64,000 bases of DNA from Patescibacteria group bacterium (GCA_030583805.1 CP129476.1:117453-181452); one strand, 5' to 3'; counted from the first letter of the stretch, positions 5,627 through 47,499 are shown. The notes: generated by a model not told the origin, from the letters alone. Numbers and translations are program-made.

Positions 5627-6679
5627 ATGAAGACCTATCTCGTCACCGGCGCGGCCGGGTTCATCGGCATGCACGTCGCCAAGCGTTTGCTTGAGCGTGG
5701 CGATGTCGTGATCGGCCTCGACAACCTGAACGACTACTACGACGTTTCCCTGAAGGAAGCGCGTTTGGCGCAGCTCACTTCGCATCCGAATTTCCGCTTT
5801 GTGAAGCTCGACCTGGCCGACCGTGCGGGCATGAAAGCCGTGTTTGAAAACGAGGCCTTCGAAGTCGTCATCCATCTGGCGGCGCAAGCGGGCGTGCGCT
5901 ATTCGCTCATCAATCCGCAAGCCTACATCGATTCGAACCTGGTCGGTTTCGGCAACGTGATCGAGGGCTGCCGGCACAAGAAGGTCGCGCATCTCGTCTA
6001 TGCCTCCTCCAGCTCCGTGTACGGCGCCAACATCGAAACGCCGTTTTCCGTGAAGCACGGCGTTGATCATCAGGTGAGTCTGTACGCCGCGACGAAGAAG
6101 GCGAATGAACTCATGGCGCATACCTACAGCCATCTCTATGGGCTGCCGACCACTGGCCTGCGTTTCTTCACCGTCTACGGACCGTGGGGGCGTCCGGATA
6201 TGGCGATGTACAGCTTCACCAAGGCGATGTTGGAGGGAAAGCCGATCGACGTCTTCAATCACGGCAAGATGCAGCGCGACTTCACCTACATCGACGATAT
6301 CGTTGAAGGCGTGCTGCGCGTCGCCGACCATGTGCCGAAAGCCAGCGAGCTTTCCCCGAAGGACCGCCACCCGGGCGTGAGCCACGCGCCTTACCGCGTC
6401 TACAACATTGGAAACAACCAGCCAGTCGAGCTTGGACGTTTCATCGAAGAGCTCGAAAGAGCGCTTGGCGTGACGGCTGAAAAGCGGTACCTGCCCATGC
6501 AGCCGGGGGACGTCCCGGCTACCTATGCCGACGTGGACGATCTGATCCGTGACGTTGGGTTCCGTCCGTCAACCCCCATCGAGGAAGGCATCGCCAAATT
6601 CGTCGCTTGGTACCGTGAGTACCATAACCAGTCGTTTTCAGAAAAAACGGCTGAAATTAGCGAAATCCAGGCTGCCTGA
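5627..6679 (+). CDS. NAD-dependent epimerase/dehydratase (UDP-glucuronate 4-epimerase-like SDR)
   Basis: TGAAGFIG Rossmann motif, YAATK catalytic motif, GalE/WbpP-like architecture. AAAGGA RBS. Start is 1 nt after the alaS stop. Confidence 0.85.
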
Positions 6680-7231: not shown

Positions 7232-7621
7232 ATGGCACGTATCGCAGGCGTTACGCTCCCCAGCACCAAACGCGTCATCATCGCCCTGACCTACATCTAC
7301 GGTATCGGGCAGACGCAAGCCAAGGAGATCATCAAGAAGACCGGTGTGAATCCCGACACTCGCATCAAGGATCTCGCGGAAACGGAAGCCAACAAGCTCC
7401 GCGACCACATCGAGAAAACGATGAAAGTCGAAGGCGAACTCCGCCGCGACACGCTCGCGCAGATCAAGCGCTTGAAGGAAATCGGTTCCTACCGCGGCAC
7501 CCGCCACGCCAAGAACCTCCCCATGCGCGGACAGCGCACCAAAACCAACTCGCGCACCACGCGCGGCAACGTCCGCAAGACGATGGGCTCCGGCCGCGTC
7601 AAAGCGGGCATGAAGACCTAA
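7232..7621 (+). CDS. rpsM: 30S ribosomal protein S13
   Basis: [33 protein letters not shown]... canonical S13. Confidence 0.95.
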
Positions 7622-7641
7622 AACAAAGGATGTAAACCTTT

Positions 7642-8803: not shown

Positions 8804-9619
8804 ATGGAAGACATCCTTCTTCCGTCGAAGATCGAAATCGTTCCGACCGGGCGCGACAATGAGTCGATGCTCGTGATGGAACCGTTCTTCCACGGTTACG
8901 GCCACACGGTCGGCAACGCCCTTCGCCGGGTGCTGCTCTCGTCCCTTCAGGGCGCCGCGGTCATCGCCGTGAAAATCAAAGGCGCCTCGCATGAATTCCA
9001 GGCGGTCCCGAACGTCAAAGAAGACGTCCTCGAGATCATCTTGAACCTCAAGCAGCTCCGCCTCAAAGTGTTCTCCGATGAACCGGTCAAACTGACCTTG
9101 CACGCCAAGGGCGACAAGAAGGTCACGGGCAAGGACATCCAAGCGAACTCCGACGTCGAGGTCGCCAACCCGAACCTCCACATCGCGACGATCACCGACA
9201 AGTCCGGCGAGCTCGAGATGGAGATCACCGTGGCCAAGGGCCGCGGCTACGTCCCGACTGAAGAGCGCGGCAAGGAGAAGGCGGAACTCGGCACGATTGC
9301 CGTCGACGCCCTCTACAGCCCGATCCGCTCGGTCGGCTACAAAGTGGACGACGTCCGCGTCGGCCAGGTCACCAACTACGACCGCTTGACCCTCACGATC
9401 GAAACGGACGGCACGGTGGACGCCGATGAGGCTGTCCGCTCGTCCGCCAAGATCCTGATCGACCACTTCGCCCTCCTGACCGGCGTCAATGCCGGCGAAG
9501 CCCCGGCCAAGGCCGAGGTTGCCGAAGAGGAAACCGAAGAAACTGAAGAAGAAACCGAGGAAGCCTCCGCCGACGGAGAAGAAAAGCCTAAGAAAAAGAA
9601 GGCTTCCAAAAAGAAATAA
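8804..9619 (+). CDS. rpoA: DNA-directed RNA polymerase alpha subunit, N-terminal domain only (no alpha-CTD; acidic/basic tail)
   Basis: Alpha-NTD motifs (MEPFFHGYGHTVGNALRRVLLSSL...). Protein ends about 45 aa after the NTD with EEETEETEEETEE...KPKKKKASKKK instead of an alpha-CTD. Confidence 0.9.
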   Translation: MEDILLPSKIEIVPTGRDNESMLVMEPFFHGYGHTVGNALRRVLLSSLQGAAVIAVKIKGASHEFQAVPNVKEDVLEIILNLKQLRLKVFSDEPVKLTLHAKGDKKVTGKDIQANSDVEVANPNLHIATITDKSGELEMEITVAKGRGYVPTEERGKEKAELGTIAVDALYSPIRSVGYKVDDVRVGQVTNYDRLTLTIETDGTVDADEAVRSSAKILIDHFALLTGVNAGEAPAKAEVAEEETEETEEETEEASADGEEKPKKKKASKKK

Positions 9620-11285: not shown

Positions 11286-11585
11286 TCAGCGCGGCAGGTA
11301 GAACATGAGCGCGAGAATGGCGCCGGCCGCGGCACTGTTCATCGTGGAAGAAATCAGGAGCGCAAGCGTCCGGCGGTGGATGGCATAGACCATCCACGTC
11401 AAACTGCTCACCAAAATAATGACAAACGTCAAAAGCGACAGGCCTTGGACGTTCAGCGTCCAAAAGGCCTTTATGGCTTGCGGAAACAAAGCGATGCCTG
11501 AAAGAAGCCCGTTGGCATACGCGATACGGTCGACAAGGTGTTGGTGGTCTTCAAGACGCGTGAGTAGTTCCGATATTTTGCTCAT
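11286..11585 (-). CDS. small membrane protein (99 aa, about 3 TM), hypothetical
   Basis: ATG at 11585 (MSKISELLTRLEDHQH...) within ORF 11286..12836. Hydrophobic segments LSLLTFVIILVSSLTWMVYAI and AAAGAILALMFYL. No clear SD, so weaker. Confidence 0.4.
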   Translation of the reverse strand: MSKISELLTRLEDHQHLVDRIAYANGLLSGIALFPQAIKAFWTLNVQGLSLLTFVIILVSSLTWMVYAIHRRTLALLISSTMNSAAAGAILALMFYLPR

Positions 11586-14808: not shown

Positions 14809-15692
14809 GCCGCGCTCCCGACCTCTCGATCATCACCGTCAACTGGAAAGTCGCCGATTTGGTCGGCGAGCTTTTGGGCTCGATCGAAGCGAACAAGGAG
14901 CACTTGGCGATCGAAATGTTTGTCGTCGATAACGATTCGAAAGACGGCATCGACGCCGTCGTCGCGGCGTTTAAAAACCGTTCCGGAATCCCGATCACGC
15001 TCATCAAGAACGATCGAAATCTTGGATTTGCCGCCGCCAACAATATCGCGATCCGCCGCGCTTCCGGGCGGCACGTGGCGCTTTTGAATCCCGACGCGCG
15101 CGCCACGCACGGCGCGCTTGCAAAAATGGTCGCTTGGATGGACGCGCATCCGGACGTCGGCGTGGCCGGCACCAAGCTTTTGAACGTCGACGGCACGCTC
15201 CAGGAGTCCGTCCGCCGCTTCCCGGGTCTTCTCGATCAAGCGATGATTCTTCTGAAACTCCAGCATGTCTGGCCGGACGCGCCGCCGTTTAAGAAGTATC
15301 TGATGAAAGGTTTTGACGACGCGAAAGAGCAGGATGTCGATCAGGTCATGGGCGCGGCCTTCTTCGTGCGCCGCGAGACGTTCAAGAAGATCGGCTTGCT
15401 CGATGAAGCCTTCTTCATCTGGTTCGAAGAAGTCGATTTCTGCAAGCGCGTGAAGAACGCCGGGCTCCGCGTCGTCTATACGCCGGTCGCGTCGTTCATC
15501 CATCATCGCGGCGCCAGCTTCGCGCAAGCGATGACGTTCAAAAAACAAAGATACTTCACGAACAGCATGCGCATCTACTTTGCCAAGCACATGGGTCTCT
15601 GGACGACGCCGCTCCTGGCGCTGCCGATGTGTTTCGGCCTCGTTTCATCCGCCTTCTTTTCCCTATGGCATTCGCCCTCCCGCAAAGCCTGA
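14805..15692 (+). CDS. glycosyltransferase family 2 (rhamnosyltransferase/WbbL-like)
   Basis: LSIITVNWKVADLVGELLGSI...FVVDNDSKDG. ATGA overlap with the upstream gene. Confidence 0.85.
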   Translation: MSRAPDLSIITVNWKVADLVGELLGSIEANKEHLAIEMFVVDNDSKDGIDAVVAAFKNRSGIPITLIKNDRNLGFAAANNIAIRRASGRHVALLNPDARATHGALAKMVAWMDAHPDVGVAGTKLLNVDGTLQESVRRFPGLLDQAMILLKLQHVWPDAPPFKKYLMKGFDDAKEQDVDQVMGAAFFVRRETFKKIGLLDEAFFIWFEEVDFCKRVKNAGLRVVYTPVASFIHHRGASFAQAMTFKKQRYFTNSMRIYFAKHMGLWTTPLLALPMCFGLVSSAFFSLWHSPSRKA

Positions 15693-38245: not shown

Positions 38246-38767
38246 AGCGGCAAAGACTCCCCGAAAGGGGAGTTTTGCGTTACCTGATGAAGTAGAAAGA
38301 TGCATCAGCGCAGCATCTCGGCATCCTGGCTGCAGTCGTACGGCAAGAGCGATGCGTGCGCCTCTTGTTCGTACGCCATTTCGGTCTCTTCGGACTGTTG
38401 CAGCGCATCGTCGAGCTCCGCCATGAGAGAGCGGTACCCGTCACCAAGCGCGTGCATGAGCTTGTGGAACATGTCTGCGTAGGTTACGAGGAGTGACGCC
38501 TCCTTGCCTTTCCGAAGACGCCCAGCCGCGCCGCTTCTTACAACCGCGGACCGTTTTGTTACCTTTCCCGCGGAAGCCCGTATACATCTGCATGAAACGC
38601 AACACCAAAATCCTCCTCCTCGCCGGCACGGCTGCCAAAAGCCTTGTGCTGGCGTTTACGATGCTGGTTTTTAAGTGAGCAAGAAGCCATTTAAAGCGCG
38701 TATGCTCACGGCTCTTGATTCGGCAGAGGATTGACTTTTAGCAAAATTTGTGCTAGCCTGGTCGGTT

Positions 38768-38983
38768 ATGTCCCGTTACCAGGCTTATCTTTTATCCCGT
38801 ATTTGGGGCGTCCGTCGCCACCATGTTTTGCGGCGCGCGAAATATCGCTGTGAGAAATGCGGAAGCGCGAATCCGCTGCACGTGCACCATAAGACGTACG
38901 AGAATATCGGAAACGAGCCGCTAAAAGACCTTATCGCTCTGTGTGTTGGGTGCCATTCACAGGCGCACGGTTTGCCCGTATAA
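38768..38983 (+). CDS. HNH endonuclease (small, stand-alone)
   Basis: CEKCGS...LHVHHKTYENIGNEPLKDLIALCVGCHSQAH HNH motif. Confidence 0.6.
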   Translation: MSRYQAYLLSRIWGVRRHHVLRRAKYRCEKCGSANPLHVHHKTYENIGNEPLKDLIALCVGCHSQAHGLPV

Positions 38984-39101
38984 TTGAAATACAACTGAAT
39001 AGTTATCCAGAGTACGGTGAGGGATATCGGCCCTACGACCCGTCGGCAACCAGGCTTCGGTCACGGTGCCTCCGACCCGAAAGGGGAAGATAATTCTTGA
39101 A

Positions 39102-39140
39102 TGGACTCTTCCTTGCAGGGGAGAGTTTTTCTCTTTATTA
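39102..39140 (+). terminator. possible rho-independent terminator downstream of HNH gene
   Basis: 8-bp stem ACTCTTCC/GGGGAGAGT (one G-U) followed by TTTTTCTCTTT. Confidence 0.3.
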
Positions 39141-39212
39141 GACGCACAAGAGTCGATATTTATTATGAAATTGACCGGTAAACACGTAATGCGAGTACCG
39201 TGGATAACTCTT

Positions 39213-39244
39213 GTTAAGTTTTGTTATGTCTACTGGTATAATCA
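39213..39244 (+). promoter_or_regulatory. putative promoter of R-M operon with extended -10 (TGgTATAAT)
   Basis: Perfect TATAAT preceded by TGG, 25 nt upstream of the MTase ATG. TTGTTA -35-like hexamers upstream. Confidence 0.35.
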
Positions 39245-39268
39245 GCCTAAAGATTAGGTAAATCTAGC

Positions 39269-40504
39269 ATGAGATTGATCACATTAAGAGAGGCCTCAGA
39301 AATTTTGGGCATGCATCCTAATACGCTTCGGAATTGGGAAAGATCCGGCAGGATTAAGTGCGTAAGGATCGGCGCTCGTGGCGACAGGCGCTTTGATTAC
39401 GACTCACTATTGGAAGTCGTGGGAAACGACCAAAGCTTTAAAAAAAAATATACATTGGTTGATCTTTTTTGCGGATGTGGTGGGCTCTCAAAGGGGTTTG
39501 AAATGACCGGATCGTTTAAAACCATTTTTGGTATTGATAACTGGAAGCCAGCATTGGAAACTTTTGAATTAAACCACCCTGAGGCGAGAGGGGTACAGTG
39601 GTCACTGGAGAAAAGAAATATAGATGCCCTAATTAAAGAGTTGGGTGAGTTTGATGTGGATGTCGTTGTGGGCGGACCACCATGCCAGGGATTCTCATTG
39701 GCAGGGCCTCGAAATTTCAACGACACAAGGAATTCTTTGTACCTCGGTTTCCTAAGGTTTGTTAAACAGACATCTCCCCGAGCTTTCGTTATTGAGAATG
39801 TTCCGGGCCTAGCCTCGCTTTACGGAGGCGTTGTAAAAGACCGGATCATTAAGGAATTCACAAAACTCGGGTACAACGTGATCTCTAAGGTTTTGCTAGC
39901 TTCGGACTATGGAGTCCCACAAAACCGCAGAAGGCTTGTATTCGTTGGAGTAAAGGGTGGAACTTTTAGTTTTCCCAAACCTACGCATGGTGAAAATTTA
40001 AAGCAGAAAATTACAGTGAATGACGCCGTTTCCGATTTGCCGTCATTAAGGAGTGAGTTGGGACAGGAGGTAATGCCTTACGGACAAAGAGTTAAGAATG
40101 AATTCCAAGAGTATTGCAGAAGAAATAGTGATCGGCTACATAATCATGTGGCCGCAAATCACGACGATGCTACCAGAAGAATAATCGCACTTGTTCCCGA
40201 AGGCAAAAATTATAAGTCTTTACCCGAAGTTCTAAGAGGCACGCGCAATTTTCATGTGGCGTGGACGAGGTTCGATGGTAGGTGCCCAGCTCCCACCATC
40301 GATACGGGCCACCGCCATCACTTCCACCACAAGGAAAACAGGGTGCCCACAGTCAGGGAATCAGCACGACTGCAGTCGTTTCCAGATGATTTCATCTTCC
40401 TTTCTTCCAAGACAAATCAATACAAACAGGTTGGAAATGCAGTTCCCCCGCTTTTAGCAAAGCAGATCGCGCTGTCTTTACTGGATTCATTTGATAAAAA
40501 ATGA
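39269..40504 (+). CDS. DNA (cytosine-5)-methyltransferase with N-terminal MerR/excisionase-type HTH domain
   Basis: HTH_17-like N-terminus (MRLITLREASEILGMHPNTLRNWERSGRIKCVRIG). m5C-MTase motifs I DLFCGCGG, IV GGPPCQGFS, ENV, QNRRR, RESARLQSFPDDF, GNAVPP. Confidence 0.9.
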   Translation: MRLITLREASEILGMHPNTLRNWERSGRIKCVRIGARGDRRFDYDSLLEVVGNDQSFKKKYTLVDLFCGCGGLSKGFEMTGSFKTIFGIDNWKPALETFELNHPEARGVQWSLEKRNIDALIKELGEFDVDVVVGGPPCQGFSLAGPRNFNDTRNSLYLGFLRFVKQTSPRAFVIENVPGLASLYGGVVKDRIIKEFTKLGYNVISKVLLASDYGVPQNRRRLVFVGVKGGTFSFPKPTHGENLKQKITVNDAVSDLPSLRSELGQEVMPYGQRVKNEFQEYCRRNSDRLHNHVAANHDDATRRIIALVPEGKNYKSLPEVLRGTRNFHVAWTRFDGRCPAPTIDTGHRHHFHHKENRVPTVRESARLQSFPDDFIFLSSKTNQYKQVGNAVPPLLAKQIALSLLDSFDKK

Positions 40505-40505
40505 C

Positions 40506-41936
40506 ATGAAAAAGATATACAGAGTTCCCGATGAGTATAATTTTCGACTGCACCACATCCGCCCCAGATTCAAAAATGACGTCGAGAACGTCTTGTTTTT
40601 CATGGCTTCTGAAATATCAAAAATTACTCCTGCGCCGGAGGAGGATTTTGCTAGAGAGTTGAACAAGGCTATCAGGCGCTACCCAGGCAATGCCTCCAAA
40701 GCCGAAAAAACAATTGATAATTGGCGGACCGAAATAACGGCTCTCTTTGGATTGATTGAATATGATGGTGAGATCGCAAGGCCCGGGCGAATGGCGAATT
40801 TACTGGCAGAATCTCAGGATTTGATCGAGTTTTTTCGCTATTTCCTATTTTACTTCCAATATCCTGGCGGCCATCTGAAACCCCACGAATCCTTGGAGTT
40901 TATCGAGGCTGGCGTACGTTTTAAACCGGCCAAGTATTTGTTGCAGGTGCTTTTAGATGGGAAAAAGATTTTGGGTGAAAACGCGAAGTTTGGCATAACA
41001 AAAGCCGAGGCTACTCACTGTATTTTTAACGACTTGCGAGTGACGCGTGATGGCCGTCCAGCAAACAAGACTGCCGAGTTGATTATTAGCAATAGAAACG
41101 ATAAGGCCGAATACCCTCAGGGAGGGGATATCGTTCGTTATGCCGGGGACATACTTGACTATATGGTGTTGGCGGATCTCGTTAGACTGAGACCGAACTA
41201 CAAATACTATTTGAATCCAGTGCATTTCGAGACCATACAGGCCTTTGTTGGAAATAATGACTATTTTGAACCATACGAGAGCTTGTATAAGCACGGACAT
41301 CCCTTGTTAGCCAATGTAACGGCATCCAAGGAAGATTGGTTTCATTATGTGAACAACAAACTTGATTCAAGTATATTTGAGGCGGACGCTTTTTCTATCA
41401 TTGAAGAGGCTGGTGAGACAGTTGACAGTGAAAAGGAAAGTTTCTTTATTGGCGAGGTCTTAAAAAAAATCCGGGATCTCAAAGAGTCGGAATCTATTAA
41501 CACCAAGGAGGTTGGAGATGTGGGCGAGGCCATCGTTATCGAACATGAAAAAAATAGAATGATGCGATTGGATCGCGAAAGCCTGCTGCACCTGATTAAA
41601 AAAATTCCAGAATCTTACGCGATGGGTTATGATATAAATTCATTTGAAGGCATCGGAGAAATACGAAGATACATTGAAGTCAAGACGAGTATAAGTCGAG
41701 GAAAACTTGCCGCGCAGTTTTTCCATATGACTCCCAGTGAATGGAGTTCTGCAGAGACGCTTAAGGATACCTACTTTGTGTACCGCTTAATGATCTCGGC
41801 GCAGGGCATCAGCCTTTTTCTAATACAGGATCCAGTTGGAAAATATAAGAGCGACCGCCTGAGCATGGCTCCTCGCGACGGTGCCGACATTCACTACACT
41901 GAGAGATCGGGCAACTGGGAAGAGCTTCTTGTATGA
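40506..41936 (+). CDS. candidate restriction endonuclease: novel N-terminal domain + C-terminal DUF3883 (PD-(D/E)xK-like) domain
   Basis: C-terminal about 150 aa fits the DUF3883 pattern (GDVGEAIVIEHEKNRM...GYDINSFEGIGEIRRYIEVKTS...FFHMTPSEWSSAE...TYFVYRL). Sandwiched between two m5C MTases with ATGA coupling to the downstream gene. Confidence 0.6.
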   Translation: MKKIYRVPDEYNFRLHHIRPRFKNDVENVLFFMASEISKITPAPEEDFARELNKAIRRYPGNASKAEKTIDNWRTEITALFGLIEYDGEIARPGRMANLLAESQDLIEFFRYFLFYFQYPGGHLKPHESLEFIEAGVRFKPAKYLLQVLLDGKKILGENAKFGITKAEATHCIFNDLRVTRDGRPANKTAELIISNRNDKAEYPQGGDIVRYAGDILDYMVLADLVRLRPNYKYYLNPVHFETIQAFVGNNDYFEPYESLYKHGHPLLANVTASKEDWFHYVNNKLDSSIFEADAFSIIEEAGETVDSEKESFFIGEVLKKIRDLKESESINTKEVGDVGEAIVIEHEKNRMMRLDRESLLHLIKKIPESYAMGYDINSFEGIGEIRRYIEVKTSISRGKLAAQFFHMTPSEWSSAETLKDTYFVYRLMISAQGISLFLIQDPVGKYKSDRLSMAPRDGADIHYTERSGNWEELLV

Positions 41937-42922
41937 GAGTGCGAAAAATTAAAATAGCTTCATTTTTTAGTGGATGCGGCGGTATGGATCTCGGTGTCGA
42001 GGGCGGCTTTTCTTTCCTGGAAAAAAAGTATCCTAGACATCCCACACAGACTGTTTTTGCGACTGATTATGATCAGAAAATTTCTGAAATATACAATCAG
42101 AATTTTCTCACCGATATTGTTGTGAAAGATATTAGAAATCTGGACGCTGAAGAAGTGCCAGACCACGATGTTCTTACAGGAGGGTTTCCATGCCAATCTT
42201 TTTCAGTTGTCGCGCAGAATCCGAAACGGCTCGGCTATAAGGATGTTAGAGGGCAACTGTTTTTCGAAATGTGCAGAATTCTGAGAGAGAAGAAGCCCTC
42301 GGTGTTCGTTGGAGAAAATGTAAAGGGCCTTTTGTCGGCGAATGGCGGAGAGGCGTTCCCTCTTGTGATCAAAGAGTTTGAGAATGCCGGTTACCATGTT
42401 AAGCACAAGGTTTTAAATGCGTCCCACTACGGGGTGCCCCAAAAGAGGGAAAGGGTATTTATTGTCGGTTTTCGAAGTAAAAAGGCTTTTGATTCTTTTA
42501 ACTTTCCTAAACCAACGACGGAGAACGGGCCCGTTCCGATTTCTTCCGTTGTCATCCCGGAAAACGAAGTAGAAAAAGTACACTACTTTAGCAAGAAAGC
42601 GATTCAAGGCCTGAGCCGTTCAAAAAATCATAAGCTGATGAATAAGGGCAGGGCCCAAAGATTGGACCAGCCTTGCAACACGGTTGGAGCACATCTGGCT
42701 AAAGTGAGTTTGAATAGCACGGATCCGGTACTCTGTTTAAAAGGAAAGTACCGGATGTTTACGCCACGCGAGGTTGCTCGAATCCAATCCTTTCCCGATA
42801 ATTTTGTGCTTTCCGGGTCGAGAACTGTTAACTATAAGGCGCTGGGTAACGCGGTTGCGCCGGTGGTGATGTGGCATGTGACAAGAGAAATCGTTAAGGC
42901 GCTCGGCGAGTACGGCAAGTAA
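41933..42922 (+). CDS. DNA (cytosine-5)-methyltransferase (second MTase of operon)
   Basis: Motifs FFSGCGG, GGFPCQSFS, ENV, QKRERVF, REVARIQSFPDNF, GNAVAPVV. Confidence 0.9.
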   Translation: MRVRKIKIASFFSGCGGMDLGVEGGFSFLEKKYPRHPTQTVFATDYDQKISEIYNQNFLTDIVVKDIRNLDAEEVPDHDVLTGGFPCQSFSVVAQNPKRLGYKDVRGQLFFEMCRILREKKPSVFVGENVKGLLSANGGEAFPLVIKEFENAGYHVKHKVLNASHYGVPQKRERVFIVGFRSKKAFDSFNFPKPTTENGPVPISSVVIPENEVEKVHYFSKKAIQGLSRSKNHKLMNKGRAQRLDQPCNTVGAHLAKVSLNSTDPVLCLKGKYRMFTPREVARIQSFPDNFVLSGSRTVNYKALGNAVAPVVMWHVTREIVKALGEYGK

Positions 42923-42923
42923 T

Positions 42924-43337
42924 ATGGCCGACATGTTCAGCAAGAAAAGACGGAGTGAAATAATGTCGAAAATTCGCTCAAAAAATACGGGCGCAGAACG
43001 TTTAGTGTTCAGGCATCTTCGTGCAAAAGGGTTGCACTTTCAAAAGCATTATAAAGGCGCTCCAGGCAGCCCTGATATCGCCTTGCCGAAGAAAAAGCTT
43101 GCGGTTTTTATCGACGGGGACTTTTGGCACGGAAGGCATCTGAACCGCCTCTTGGTAAAAGGTACAAAGAACTATTGGGTAATGAAAATCACGACCAACA
43201 TAAAACGGGATCGTCGCCAAAGAGCAGCATTAAAAAAAGGTGGTTGGAAGATCTTAAAGGTTTGGGAAAGCGACCTTAAACGTGTAAGTACAAGGTACGA
43301 CCAGCTATTAAAAGTTGAAAAGTTCATTAAAAACTAA
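42924..43337 (+). CDS. vsr: very-short-patch-repair endonuclease
   Basis: RSEIMSKIRSKNTGAE...PGSPDIALPKKKLAVFIDGDFWHG...GWKILKVWE Vsr signature. Starts 1 nt after the MTase stop. Confidence 0.85.
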   Translation: MADMFSKKRRSEIMSKIRSKNTGAERLVFRHLRAKGLHFQKHYKGAPGSPDIALPKKKLAVFIDGDFWHGRHLNRLLVKGTKNYWVMKITTNIKRDRRQRAALKKGGWKILKVWESDLKRVSTRYDQLLKVEKFIKN

Positions 43338-43339
43338 AA

Positions 43340-43362
43340 ACCCCTTGTGGGGTTTTTAAGTC
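43340..43362 (+). terminator. rho-independent terminator after vsr
   Basis: AAACCCCTTGTGGGGTTTTT: perfect 7-bp GC-rich stem + T-run. Confidence 0.6.
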
Positions 43363-43366
43363 ATCC

Positions 43367-43497
43367 GACGGTAATCTCCCCATCCTTCACCCCCACCTTC
43401 ACCGTCGACTCCTCTTTGACGGTACCTTCCAAGATTTGTAGCGCCAGCTTGTTGAGGATCACGTCCTGAATCAGCCTCTTGAGCGGGCGGTCGCTTT
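43367..43497. repeat. displaced copy of the clpB 3' end (direct repeat partner of 44881-45011)
   Basis: About 131 bp near-identical to the clpB 3' coding end. It contains an in-frame stop and synonymous substitutions (e.g. GTC/ACC vs GTG/ACG for the V and T of ...GEITVG*). Confidence 0.7.
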
Positions 43498-43568
43498 AAA
43501 TTCAGTCTCTTGACATCGAAACACTACTTCCTCCATTATGCGCAGGTCCTTAACACAAGGAGGGACAT

Positions 43569-44528
43569 GTGAAGAGCAAGTTCATGATGTTGGCTGTGTT
43601 GTGCGCGGTTTGCTCCTGTCGGGCTGATCTCGACTCCACCCCTCAAACCTCGGCGACGAAGATCGTCTTTGAGGATCCGCCGGCGTTGGAGGTGCTGATG
43701 GCCTTCATGGGAGATGCGGGGGTGAGACCGGCAGAGTTCACTTTCAGGGTCGGAGAGAGCATGCGGGGCGGGTTCCGGTTCAATGCGGACGAGTCGCTGG
43801 ATGCTGGCTTGCAGAGGTTCCGGCGGCTGCATGCTGAATTCCTCGCGGCGGCAATTGCCGATGCGGAGACTCACGCCGAGGATCGTTCCGACCGCTGGCG
43901 CAACTTCGTGGTGTTTCTCGAGGATTCCAACGCCTCTCCACAGGTGTGGATCGAGGAAACAGTCATGGGAACACGTGAGGACGCACTTGTTGTCCAGGAT
44001 CTCTTCGGAGGAATCGCGACGGAGAACCCGTCAGTCGACGAGGAAGTCGTGCCGGACAGGATTGTCTACTCGACCTCGCATGAATCCTGGGCTCCATATG
44101 GTGGAACCGCGAAGCTTACGCAGGGTGTTTCGTATCACACCTTCTACTTCAACAACCTGTCTGCCTACGGCAGCACGTCGACGTACGAGCACGAAGCGCA
44201 GGTTTACAATCGTGCCTACGCCGACTACGCGGGGTATTGGAGCAGTAACCTGCCCTACGCGTACTACGACACTCCGTTTTCGGACTCGATCGACGTCTTT
44301 ACGGTTGGTTCTGCCCAAGCTGCTTCCATGGCGACCTACACGCAGTACTATACGTACATGGCGCTGAGTCCTGGTCTGGCGACGAGCGCGACGGTTCGGG
44401 TCAAAGGCCAGCTTGGTCATCGCTCGCCGAGCTGGTGCTACTCGACCTGGTGCATCTTCGCTGACGCGACAACCGGCTCCATGACGACGTTCCTGGCACC
44501 AGTAGAAGGGATCAGTTGGTCTTACTAG
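43569..44528 (+). CDS. secreted Tyr/Ser/Thr-rich lipoprotein-like protein (hypothetical)
   Basis: GTG start with AAGGAGGG RBS (4-nt spacer). Signal peptide MKSKFMMLAVLCAVCSC. Tyr-rich C-terminal half. Confidence 0.5.
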   Translation: MKSKFMMLAVLCAVCSCRADLDSTPQTSATKIVFEDPPALEVLMAFMGDAGVRPAEFTFRVGESMRGGFRFNADESLDAGLQRFRRLHAEFLAAAIADAETHAEDRSDRWRNFVVFLEDSNASPQVWIEETVMGTREDALVVQDLFGGIATENPSVDEEVVPDRIVYSTSHESWAPYGGTAKLTQGVSYHTFYFNNLSAYGSTSTYEHEAQVYNRAYADYAGYWSSNLPYAYYDTPFSDSIDVFTVGSAQAASMATYTQYYTYMALSPGLATSATVRVKGQLGHRSPSWCYSTWCIFADATTGSMTTFLAPVEGISWSY

Positions 44529-44836
44529 ACCTTCGGCGCATTCTTCTTTGAGCGCGCCTCTTTTATTTTCGAAATCACAACCATGACTGCGCTCAGCAGG
44601 AGAGTATTCAACAGAAACGATACCCAGTTGAAACGAGTCGGGTGCTCGCGCACGTCCTCAAGCGGAACTGACTGCTGTTCTGAGTAATCGATGCTTTTTT
44701 CCTGCACTACAAAGGACAGAGGCAGGCCGTACTGATAAACGTTGCTCTTTTCTGAAGAAGCTCTTCGCGGCAAGAAGGCGGTTAGACCGGTAACAAGTAC
44801 CGCAGCAGCAATGATGTAGATGTAAGTTTTCTTCAT
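44525..44836 (-). CDS. small membrane protein (N- and C-terminal TM), hypothetical
   Basis: 103-aa ORF, AT-richer than the background. Overlaps the convergent gene's stop. Confidence 0.45.
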   Translation of the reverse strand: MKKTYIYIIAAAVLVTGLTAFLPRRASSEKSNVYQYGLPLSFVVQEKSIDYSEQQSVPLEDVREHPTRFNWVSFLLNTLLLSAVMVVISKIKEARSKKNAPKV

Positions 44837-44880
44837 ACCAATATCCTAACTCGAGAGGTTTCGTATTTCAAGATCGTGCA

Positions 44881-45011
44881 GGTTCATCCCACCGTAATCT
44901 CCCCATCCTTCACCCCCACCTTCACCGTCGACTCTTCTTTGACGGTACCTTCCAAGATTTGCAGCGCCAGTTTGTTGAGAATCACGTCCTGAATCAGCCT
45001 CTTGAGCGGGC
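44881..45011. repeat. clpB 3' end segment (direct repeat partner of 43367-43497)
   Basis: Forms the genuine C-terminal coding end of clpB. Similarity to the upstream copy ends at ...GAGCGGGCGG. Confidence 0.7.
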
Positions 45012-47499
45012 GGGCGCCGAAGCTGGGGTCGTAGCCTTTTTCGACAAGCAGCTTTTTGGCGGCGGCGGAAACGTCCAGCTTGATGTGCTTGTCCTTGAGA
45101 CGATCCTGCACGCGGGCGAGTTGGACGTCGGCGATCTTCGTCAGGTGTTCCATCTTCAGGGCGTGGAAGACGACGGTTTCGTCGACGCGGTTCAGGAACT
45201 CAGGCTTGAAGGATTGGCGCAGGAGGTTCATGACGCGGTCGTGGAGGGTTTCGTCGGCGCTCTTTTCCTCGTCGGCGTCTTCGAAGCCGATCGCGCCCTT
45301 CTTTTTGCCGAGCTCCAAGATCTCCTCGGAACCGACGTTCGAGGTCATGATGATGATCGTGTTCTTGAAATTCACGACGCGGCCTTTGCCGTCGGTCAGG
45401 CGGCCGTCGTCGAGGATTTGGAGAAGCGTATTGAAGACTTCCGGATGCGCCTTTTCGATTTCGTCGAAGAGGACCACCGAGTACGGGCGGCGGCGGATCT
45501 GTTCGGCGAGTTGGCCGCCTTCGTCGTGGCCGACGTAGCCGGGAGGGGAGCCGATCATGCGGGCGACGGAGTGGCGTTCGCCGTACTCCGACATGTCGAG
45601 GCGCACCATGGCGTTCTCGTCGTTGAACAGGAAGGCCGCCAGCGCTTTCGCCAGCTCGGTTTTACCGACGCCCGTCGGGCCCAGGAAGATGAAGGAACCC
45701 ATCGGACGGGTTTCTTCGCCCACGCCCGCGCGCGAGCGGCGCACGGCGTCGGAGACGGCTTTGATGGCCTCTTCCTGTCCGATCACGCGCTTTGAAAGTT
45801 CGGTTTCGAGCTGCACCAGTTTCTTCAGTTCGGACTCGAGCATTTTGGAAACGGGAATGCCCGTCCAGCGCGAAACGACGTTCGCCACGTCCTCCTCGTC
45901 GACTTCTTCTTTCAGGAAACGATGGCCCTTCTGGAGCTTCTTCAGCGTTTCCTCGGCGGCTTTGAGCGCCTTTTCAGTCTCCGGCACTTGGCCGTAGCGG
46001 ATCTTGGCGGCGAGCTCGAGGTCGCCCTTACGTTCGGCGATGTCGGCTTCCTGCTTCAGCTTGTCGATTTTCTTCTTGCCGTCGCGGATGGCGGAGATGG
46101 CGTCCTTTTCATTCTTCCAGCGGAGTTCCAAGCCGGACGCGCGCTCCTTGGCCTCGGCCAGGAGTTTCTCGACTTCCTTCAAGCGCACTTTGGCGTGCTT
46201 GTCTTCTTCTTTTTCAAGCGCGCGCTTTTCGATTTCAAGCTTGGTGATGCCGCGCTTCAGGGCGTCGAGCTCCTGCGGCTGCGAGTCGATCTGCATGCGG
46301 AGTGCGGAAGCGGCTTCGTCGATCAGGTCGACGGCCTTGTCCGGCAGGAAACGGTCGGTGATGTAGCGGTGCGACAAATTGACTGCCGCGACGATCGCGG
46401 AGTCGGTGATGCGCACGCCGTGGTGCAGGTCGTAGCGTTCTTTGATGCCACGGAGAATCGAGATGGCGTCTTCCGGCGACGGTTCATTGACCGTCACGGG
46501 TTGGAAGCGGCGAGCCAGAGCGCCGTCCTTCTCGATGTGCTTCTGGTATTCCTTGAGCGTGGTCGCGCCGATGCAGCGCAGTTCGCCGCGAGCGAGCGCG
46601 GGCTTCAAAAGGTTCGAAGCGTCCATGGCGCCTTCGGTGCCGCCGGCGCCGACGAGGGTGTGAAGTTCGTCGATAAACAAGATGACGCCGCCGGCCGATT
46701 TCTCGACTTCCTTCATGACGGCTTTGAGACGCTCTTCAAACTCGCCGCGGAACTTGGTGCCGGCGATGAGCGCGCCCAAGTCGAGCGCGACGACGTCTTT
46801 GCCTTTCAGCGATTCCGGCACGTCGCCCGAGACGATGCGCTGCGCCAAGCCTTCGACGATCGCGGTTTTACCGGTGCCGGGTTCGCCGATCAGGGCGGGA
46901 TTGTTTTTGGTGCGGCGCGAAAGGACCTGGATCACGCGGCGGATCTCCTCGTCGCGGCCGATGACCGGATCGAGCTTTTCGGCGCGCGCGAGGCGGGTGA
47001 GGTTGCGCGAATATTTTTCGAGCGCTTGGTAGGTGGCTTCCGGTTCGGTCGACGTCACGCGCTGCGAACCGCGGATGTCCATCAAGACTTTCAAAACGGC
47101 ATCGGTCGTGACGCCCATCTCGGCAAGCAGGGAAGCGGCCTCGTTTTTGGTCTCCATGAGGCCGAGCAAAAGGTGCTCGGTCGAAACGTATTCATCTTTG
47201 AAACGCTCGGCGATCTTGTGCGCTTGGCGGATGGCGCGGTCGAGGTTTTGCGAGACGAAAACCTGGGTCGTGTTGCCGCCCTCGGCCTTTTTCGGCGCCT
47301 CCAGCCTGGCGCGCTTCAAGACGGCCGCCGGATCGATCCCCAGTTTTTTAAAAACGGAAACAACCACGCCCTCTTCCTGGCGAAGGAGCGTGCTGAGCAG
47401 GTGGTTGGCCTCCAAGACCTGGGAACCGGCCTCAAAAGCCAGGTTTTGAGCCTCCTGGAGGGCTTCGAGGGCTTTGGTCGTAAAGCGGTTTTGTTGCAT
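44884..47499 (-). CDS. clpB: ATP-dependent chaperone ClpB
   Basis: 871 aa. N-domain [21 protein letters not shown]. Two AAA+ modules ([16 protein letters not shown]) and a coiled-coil middle domain. Confidence 0.95.

Follow-up and report, generated by a model that had tools for sequence, protein, structure and literature searches.

The closest described counterparts of the locus considered here, a duplicated 3' end (hereafter tail) of clpB in the genome of a Patescibacteria group bacterium (GCA_030583805.1, CP129476.1:117453-181452), are insertion scars of several kinds. The cis-mobilizable elements (CIMEs) of Streptococcus and comparable islands at gene 3' ends keep attL and attR and have lost their integration genes (PMC5704250). 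A single crossover with recircularised fragments leaves the insert flanked by duplicates of 109–950 bp of homologous sequence, and in the homology-facilitated illegitimate recombination (HFIR) of naturally transformable bacteria one homologous anchor is paired with an illegitimate junction (PMC3240628). The minimal mobile elements (MMEs) of Neisseria are small cassettes that vary among related genomes at a site enclosed by fixed conserved genes (Saunders and Snyder, 2002, as cited in PMC1797815); strain-specific restriction-modification (R-M) genes are placed there in the MME sites MMEpheST and MMErfaDclpA, for example between rfaD and clpA. The clpB tail scar is a variant of such known scars, special for its clean allelic signature, its position at an R-M hotspot and its recurrence around other small cassettes.

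The acquisition of defence and surface genes in the ultra-small, streamlined Patescibacteria is poorly understood. Here one such event has left its physical trace at an R-M hotspot, where the alleles of donor and recipient can still be read next to each other. In what follows, "the window" is the whole 64-kb stretch (64,000 nucleotides), coordinates are counted from its first letter, and labels of the form L001 denote compared loci or genomes. The features that make up the scar are these:

43361–43494, minus strand: repeat copy R1, the displaced clpB tail remnant, in frame and with its stop codon kept
44884–45017, minus strand: repeat copy R2, the functional clpB tail, comprising the last 44 codons and the stop
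44884–47499, minus strand: intact clpB of 871 residues, ending in VKDGEITVG and a stop (open reading frame (ORF) call; real 3' end at 44884)
47549–47521, minus strand: sigma-70-like promoter of clpB (promoter scan)
43334–43359, no strand: bidirectional intrinsic terminator hairpin AAAAACCCCACAAGGGGTTTTT, between the stop codons of the remnant and of vsr

Aligned base by base over 134 nt, the two copies show seven mismatches (by BLAST, 95.4% identity over 130 nt, 43361–43490 against 44884–45013), and their homology ends precisely at the stop codon. The six internal differences all fall at third codon positions and are synonymous, and the remnant R1 carries neither indels nor premature stops; the seventh mismatch is non-synonymous and sits right at the 5' edge, where it is probably a trace of the junction. 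At four of the six differing sites R2 has the state of the outgroup L001, which places those four changes on the R1 lineage. Taken together, the purely synonymous pattern and the four changes on its own lineage mean that the remnant changed while it was still inside a working clpB. On the sequence evidence, R1 and R2 evolved in two different functional clpB alleles, and divergence confined to synonymous sites thus calls for recombination between genomes. The pair is the sole direct repeat longer than 33 nt within the window, and a search of the window for a third copy, for example at the far end of the R-M island, found none. Logan contigs from two runs (SRR24881069 and DRR859401) match the window at 100% identity across both junctions; two independent read-set assemblies therefore carry both joins, and an assembly artefact is ruled out. 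The break points of these contigs had been considered as population variants and were dropped, since bubble-popping by the assembler is expected to explain them. At the junction itself, at most a 3-nt GCG match (43492–43494) may be taken as microhomology.

A preliminary description of this DNA, made from the sequence alone, had already recognized the near-identical repeat, although its coordinates (43367–43497 and 44881–45011) were off by 3–6 nt. Its assignment of the downstream copy to the real C-terminal end of clpB is borne out by the ORF at 44884–47499, and its proposal that the upstream copy, with the same frame and stop, derives from a different clpB allele is upheld by the six synonymous differences among six that the alignment returned. 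It went wrong in calling both genes between the repeats AT-richer: this is so for the smaller gene, and the lipoprotein gene is host-like, so that AT-richness fails for it as an argument for foreign origin. The genes concerned are as follows:

43495–44883, no strand: inter-repeat segment of 1389 bp, with two genes that have their own promoters
43510–43539, plus strand: promoter-like site TTGACA-18-CATTAT of the lipoprotein gene, whose -35 hexamer begins 15 nt from the junction
43569–44528, plus strand: secreted lipoprotein of 319 residues, from a Patescibacteria-wide family
44525–44836, minus strand: small membrane protein of 103 residues, whose gene converges on that of the lipoprotein with a 4-nt overlap
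44871–44843, minus strand: promoter-like site of the 103-residue gene

The lipoprotein gene (NCBI protein QY323_00915) has a GC content of ~58% and a third-position GC content (GC3) of 0.72, host genes ranging from 0.72 to 0.84, and the 103-residue gene departs from that range at 0.59. The 92 homologs detected for the lipoprotein share 29–69% identity with it, none of them with a Pfam domain. Its layout combines an N-terminal alpha/beta domain with a strongly conserved C-terminal beta-sandwich domain, and its AlphaFold2 model is confident (pLDDT 87.8); fold matches of the modelled beta-sandwich are weak and would be to cohesin-, carbohydrate-binding-module- or pilin-like domains. In L084, the small convergent ORFs that accompany lipoprotein homologs are related to the 103-residue protein by homology (E = 3e-14), which makes the lipoprotein and the small membrane protein a conserved module. 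PADLOC gave no match for either cassette gene and hence no sign of a known defence system.

Reading outward from the 3' end of clpB, the gene order is the 103-residue gene, the lipoprotein gene, R1, the hairpin, Vsr, a C5 methyltransferase, a BpuJI-like endonuclease and a C5 methyltransferase fused to a helix-turn-helix (HTH) domain. A terminator scan finds none after the stop codon of intact clpB, which runs directly into the cassette. In L001 and L003, two Patescibacteria metagenome-assembled genomes whose ClpB is 96% and 84% identical to that of the window (Uhrbacteria being more distant), a hairpin terminator follows clpB immediately; in the window, a hairpin of this clpB type adjoins the remnant R1 and not the intact gene. 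Assigning the hairpin at 43334–43359 to clpB or to vsr was attempted and proved undecidable, the vsr of L092 having its own, different hairpin.

Relatives show what else can occupy this site. In L001, clpB and its terminator are followed by an 8.8-kb insert, after which the left flank of the window resumes; the insert carries three large ORFs for a putative Type I R-M system (translations were read, without a Pfam scan) and a gene with a Fic domain. In L003, clpB and its terminator are followed by ORFs resembling, in sequence, a C5 methyltransferase and Vsr, and by an unannotated ORF of 343 residues. Neither locus has a clpB tail duplication. In many Uhrbacteria the site is empty, with a conserved 508-residue gene ~150–250 nt 3' of clpB, and other Uhrbacteria have varied inserts of 1–3 kb there. 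Three different R-M systems directly after clpB, in the window, L001 and L003, demonstrate a hotspot, as had been proposed from the window alone. What is found is thus of the MME type: alternative cassettes at a syntenic site, among them different R-M systems, without mobility genes. When MMEs are exchanged through a crossover in each flank, no duplication remains. The tail remnant left at clpB therefore indicates that at least one event here, unlike those at MMEs, was not a clean double crossover.

A related observation concerns clpB itself. Over a mosaic block at 44930–45220 (codons ~761–855), third-position identity to L001 falls to 0.25–0.4, as against ~0.75 in the rest of the gene, and L001 and L003 are similar to one another in this block, which looks like a recombination tract ending beside the hotspot. 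The remnant R1 is of the same mosaic type as the intact tail R2, and the block therefore failed as a marker of polarity. Look-ups of the exact ClpB and Vsr proteins returned no record, and hence no alternative strain arrangement was recovered.

An integrase was sought in several ways. A Pfam scan of ~56 window ORFs, which left out a few short or unannotated ones, detected no recombinase or transposase domain, and tblastn of the window with two large serine recombinases gave no match, in agreement with the earlier statement that no integrase is present. Nor is there a detectable conserved attB core in the clpB tail: a 45-nt run identical to L001 is unexceptional (permutation p = 0.34) and is equalled by other runs in clpB, so that the idea of a special core was dropped. 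When scanned with degenerate patterns of the clpB tail peptide, neither viral nor metagenome contigs gave a match. No parent element with an integrase at clpB, of the kind the preliminary description had suggested looking for, was found in the loci examined, and the window has the repeats without mobility genes.

Among ~55 other clpB loci, one further tail duplication was found. Here, in the Uhrbacteria locus L018 (ClpB identity 60%), a second copy of the final 41 nt of clpB stands 1.46 kb downstream; only AbiEi and AbiEii, a toxin-antitoxin pair, lie between the copies, and the remnant is then followed by a terminator. Of 80 metagenome loci with relatives of the L018 AbiEii that were then fetched, 52 were testable. 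With a direct repeat of score at least 20 bracketing the AbiE pair as the criterion, 11 of the 52 (~20%) carry such a repeat, of 23–71 nt. The controls gave 0/52 with reversed sequence, 5/206 with shifted geometry in the same loci and 0/365 at random positions in clpB loci. Allowing for two duplicate pairs (L122/L123 and L143/L144) and for L115, in which the repeat lies in tandem paralogs, ~8 independent cases remain. The repeated segments belong to a variety of neighbouring genes:

L165: tail of a UPF0102 gene
L122: tail of a LamG-domain gene
L113: tail of a PEP-utilising enzyme gene
L154, L117, L149 and L143: tail of an RNaseH-like gene
L133: head (5' end) of a UDP-glucose dehydrogenase gene
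L132: intergenic stretch 5' of a terminator

Between intact tail and remnant, the substitutions are mostly synonymous (19 synonymous or stop-preserving, as against two non-synonymous):

Window: synonymous 6; stop-to-stop 0; non-synonymous 0; indel 0
L122: synonymous 4; stop-to-stop 0; non-synonymous 0; indel 0
L113 core: synonymous 5; stop-to-stop 0; non-synonymous 0; indel 0
L018: synonymous 2; stop-to-stop 1; non-synonymous 0; indel 1 (a 1-nt deletion)
L165: synonymous 0; stop-to-stop 1; non-synonymous 0; indel 0
L154: synonymous 2; stop-to-stop 0; non-synonymous 2; indel 0

A codon classification of L149 was misregistered and has been discarded. In L122 (4844–4876 and 6718–6750) the AbiEii frame ends within the LamG-gene tail remnant (DEIQRLYNLGR and a stop), and the join is a shared EIQRL, identical over 14 nt, which marks a microhomology junction. 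L149 (753–795, 2222–2255 and 3522–3562) and L117 (220–259, 1696–1735 and 3093–3133) each hold three tail copies of the RNaseH-like (PF04308) gene, which set the AbiE pair apart from a DUF4143/AAA_14 ATPase gene; such arrays are most simply explained by successive insertion of tail-bearing cassettes. These results suggest that the clpB scar is not unique and that about one-fifth of related AbiE cassettes carry allelic gene-tail remnants, at many genes and without recombinases.

How, then, did the cassette come to lie between two allelic tails? The reading that we tentatively favour, with somewhat less than even confidence, is that a cassette with its own clpB tail inserted by a crossover in the resident tail, in an integrase-free, homology-driven single crossover. 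The incoming DNA would have consisted of the lipoprotein gene, the 103-residue gene and the clpB tail of a ~95%-identical allele, and would have recombined within the resident clpB tail. The incoming tail would now complete clpB, and the resident tail with the clpB terminator would have been displaced to a point 1.5 kb downstream, next to an R-M island that the hotspot already contained. This might proceed either by a single Campbell-type crossover of a circularised or looped-out tail-bearing fragment, or by way of a linear fragment with one homologous and one illegitimate join. Such a crossover explains an intact clpB that lacks a terminator, a remnant that has one, the bracketed cassette as the common element, and the arrays. 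A homology-driven event is favoured because no recombinase was found near these cassettes, the targets are diverse, the repeat lengths vary and one junction shows microhomology, and also because there is a precedent in recircularised fragments (PMC3240628) and because Patescibacteria are reported to encode genes for homologous recombination and DNA uptake (PMC12455944). The synonymous-only divergence of R1 from R2, the like anatomy of L018 and the recombination mosaic in the 3' region of clpB also count in its favour. While the two alleles, the geometry, the hotspot and the lack of a detectable recombinase in the scanned ORFs are established, we infer the polarity, with the cassette arriving last, as well as the mechanism and the enzyme.

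Several considerations weigh against this account. Polarity and mechanism rest on analogy and not on an empty site from the same species or a circular form. Site-specific integrases, too, give a homology whose limit is exactly the stop codon, as well as tails in tandem arrays, and the 23–41 nt repeats of some AbiE cases are short for recombination of the RecA type. The unameliorated R-M island and the undecayed remnant would fit their joint arrival equally well. In L084, L086 and L088, moreover, the lipoprotein module is found away from clpB and without flanking repeats, and in L086 it adjoins a large serine recombinase.

Among the alternatives, an integrase of the tyrosine type using an attB within the clpB tail, with the repeats as attL and attR and the integrase lost or supplied in trans, would make the locus a decayed, CIME-like element. 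This was in essence the interpretation first offered, of which the insertion or recombination scar stands and the integrase is not supported, for want of the enzyme and of an attB core and in view of the variable repeat lengths. Direct repeats with one copy supplying the 3' end of the target gene, identity that stops at the stop codon, the second clpB-tail case in L018 and three-copy arrays in L149 and L117 that resemble accretion at an att site all speak for it. We nonetheless consider it unlikely, because neither the window, nor L018, nor the surroundings of the AbiE cassettes contain an integrase, no unusually conserved core is detectable, among ~55 further clpB loci just one is duplicated, with a repeat of different length (41 as against 134 nt), and the viral and metagenome scans turned up no element with a clpB tail. 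AbiE cassettes, furthermore, lie at many different genes with repeats of 23–71 nt, and the integrative elements of Patescibacteria seen here use large serine recombinases that abut tRNA genes. Were an unseen integrase responsible after all, the remnants would define its att sites. The resemblance to the CIMEs and islands extends to the flanking direct repeats, the restored target gene, the displaced tail at the far end and the tandem accretion that gives att-like arrays as in L149 and L117 (PMC5704250). The locus differs from them in that no integrase or related integrase-bearing element is found for the site, in the small size of its cassette (1.4 kb), in its long repeat (134 nt, with 5% divergence) and in that comparable cassettes use many genes with variable repeat lengths.

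One may also reverse the polarity, with the cassette as resident and a donor consisting of clpB tail, terminator, R-M island and left flank entering by HFIR, a scheme we regard as distinctly improbable; its joins would be a homologous one in the left flank and an illegitimate one just 5' of the lipoprotein promoter. The host-like GC3 of the lipoprotein gene (0.72) beside that of the clearly foreign R-M island (0.45–0.48) would agree with it, as would the fusion of the remnant to the island through a shared terminator, the 90–92% conservation of the left flank with L001 and the possible 3-nt GCG microhomology, which fits the 3–10 bp typical of HFIR (PMC3240628). It leaves unexplained, however, why a resident clpB should lack a terminator and run into the cassette; the bracketed cassette is the element common to L018 and the AbiE set, three-copy arrays would be hard to build in this way, and HFIR usually yields insertion with deletion and not duplication (PMC3240628). 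By far the least credible origin is that the tail was duplicated locally in tandem, or as the target-site duplication of a transposon, and that the copies then diverged. A direct repeat around a short segment is what it would predict, yet the synonymous-only pattern leads us to reject it. In a dead copy, first and second codon positions should hold most of the changes; the chance that neutral decay would make all six changes synonymous is, by our estimate, ~0.4^6 = 0.004, four of the six lie on the lineage of a remnant without indels or stops, the same signature is seen in L018, L122, L113 and L165, and 134 nt is far above known target-site duplications, with lengths that vary elsewhere. On every remaining reading, the locus downstream of clpB was put together from two versions.

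Returning to the homology-driven single crossover, its nearest likeness is Campbell-type integration as known from suicide vectors and E. coli (PMC3240628), in which the homologous segment is exactly duplicated, no recombinase of the element takes part and hybrid copies are possible. Here, too, the insert is flanked by a duplication of a homologous segment, with donor and recipient alleles. The likeness ends in that the former is a laboratory outcome, while here it would be a natural and recurrent route for small cassettes, with a conserved gene-tail arm of 40–130 nt and no circular form observed. With HFIR (PMC3240628) it would share one homologous anchor, an illegitimate junction (compare the 14-nt microhomology of L122) and the lack of mobility genes; HFIR typically combines insertion with a deletion in the recipient, whereas here the anchor end is duplicated and nothing is visibly deleted.

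A broader proposal, which we put forward as doubtful, is that Patescibacteria harbour integrase-free "tail-carrying cassettes" in which a promoter and genes are joined to the conserved 3' tail of the adjacent housekeeping gene as a portable homology arm, and which would loop out, spread among related genomes by DNA uptake and reinsert by single crossover. If this is true, their cargo would comprise AbiE-type defence pairs, surface modules and single ATPases, an allelic tail remnant would stay behind at every insertion, and arrays would form as insertions accumulate. Gene flow by such a homology-driven shuttle would be traceable and datable from the remnants, and the mechanism could be tested in transformable Saccharibacteria.

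The R-M island next to the remnant is a low-GC Type II module, recognized by a BpuJI_N endonuclease, two DNA_methylase domains and Vsr. Beyond its genes lie a SAM-I (S-adenosylmethionine) riboswitch and an HNH gene, and the conserved flank follows, conservation with L001 starting again at 38682:

39269–43337, plus strand: Type II R-M module (Pfam and PADLOC matches)
39269–40504, plus strand: HTH-fused C5 methyltransferase
40491–41936, plus strand: BpuJI-like endonuclease (BpuJI_N, 1.2e-95)
41933–42922, plus strand: second C5 methyltransferase
42924–43337, plus strand: Vsr
38683–39268, plus strand: left part of the variable region
38750–38983, plus strand: HNH gene
38956–38984, plus strand: promoter of the riboswitch unit
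39000–39096, plus strand: SAM-I riboswitch aptamer (RF00162; 49.6 bits, with the gathering score at 44.4)
39103–39128, plus strand: riboswitch terminator
38592–38678, plus strand: hydrophobic small ORF of 28 codons, MKRNTKILLLAGTAAKSLVLAFTMLVFK, at the left edge of the variable region

The module has a GC content of 42–48% and a GC3 of 0.45–0.48, and it is colinear, at ~70% amino acid identity, with modules inside serine-recombinase elements of other Patescibacteria. In L089 (2224–3886), which carries this R-M module, a large serine recombinase gene and a tRNA-Asn gene overlap at their 3' ends; in L086 (5720–7267), which carries a lipoprotein homolog, such a gene overlaps with a tRNA-Val gene in the same manner. 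L092 has the R-M module with no tRNA gene, and an imperfect 24-nt direct repeat (2141–2164 and 15012–15035, 12.9 kb apart) brackets the element. Since the R-M and lipoprotein modules both occur in recombinase elements elsewhere, both parts of the island in the window are typical mobile cargo, here without a recombinase.

Some minor features of these elements may be added. In L086, near-identical 29-nt palindromic hairpins (GCATGGGCGGCAC...GTGCCGCCCATGC; 5829–5857 and 7608–7636) stand at both ends of the serine recombinase gene. In L084, a 106-nt intergenic repeat of 81% identity (9493–9598 and 11452–11557) and a 24-nt motif related to it are found 5' of several genes around the two lipoprotein modules, and these genes may have them in common as regulatory elements. 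The first methyltransferase of the window (39269–40504) has a MerR/HTH_17 domain fused at its N-terminus; in related elements (L092, 6099–8004) the HTH is a separate 64-residue gene followed by RadC, which the window lacks.

A complete SAM-I unit (38956–39166) lies directly 5' of the R-M operon, whose first gene encodes a SAM-dependent methyltransferase. No SAM-I riboswitch is present in L001, L003, L018, L089 or L092. Possibly the unit controls the R-M system, or else it may be an orphan leader. At the left edge of the variable region, finally, the small ORF at 38592–38678 shares 92% nucleotide identity with L001 (21444–21534), neighbouring aligned segments being at 75–83%.

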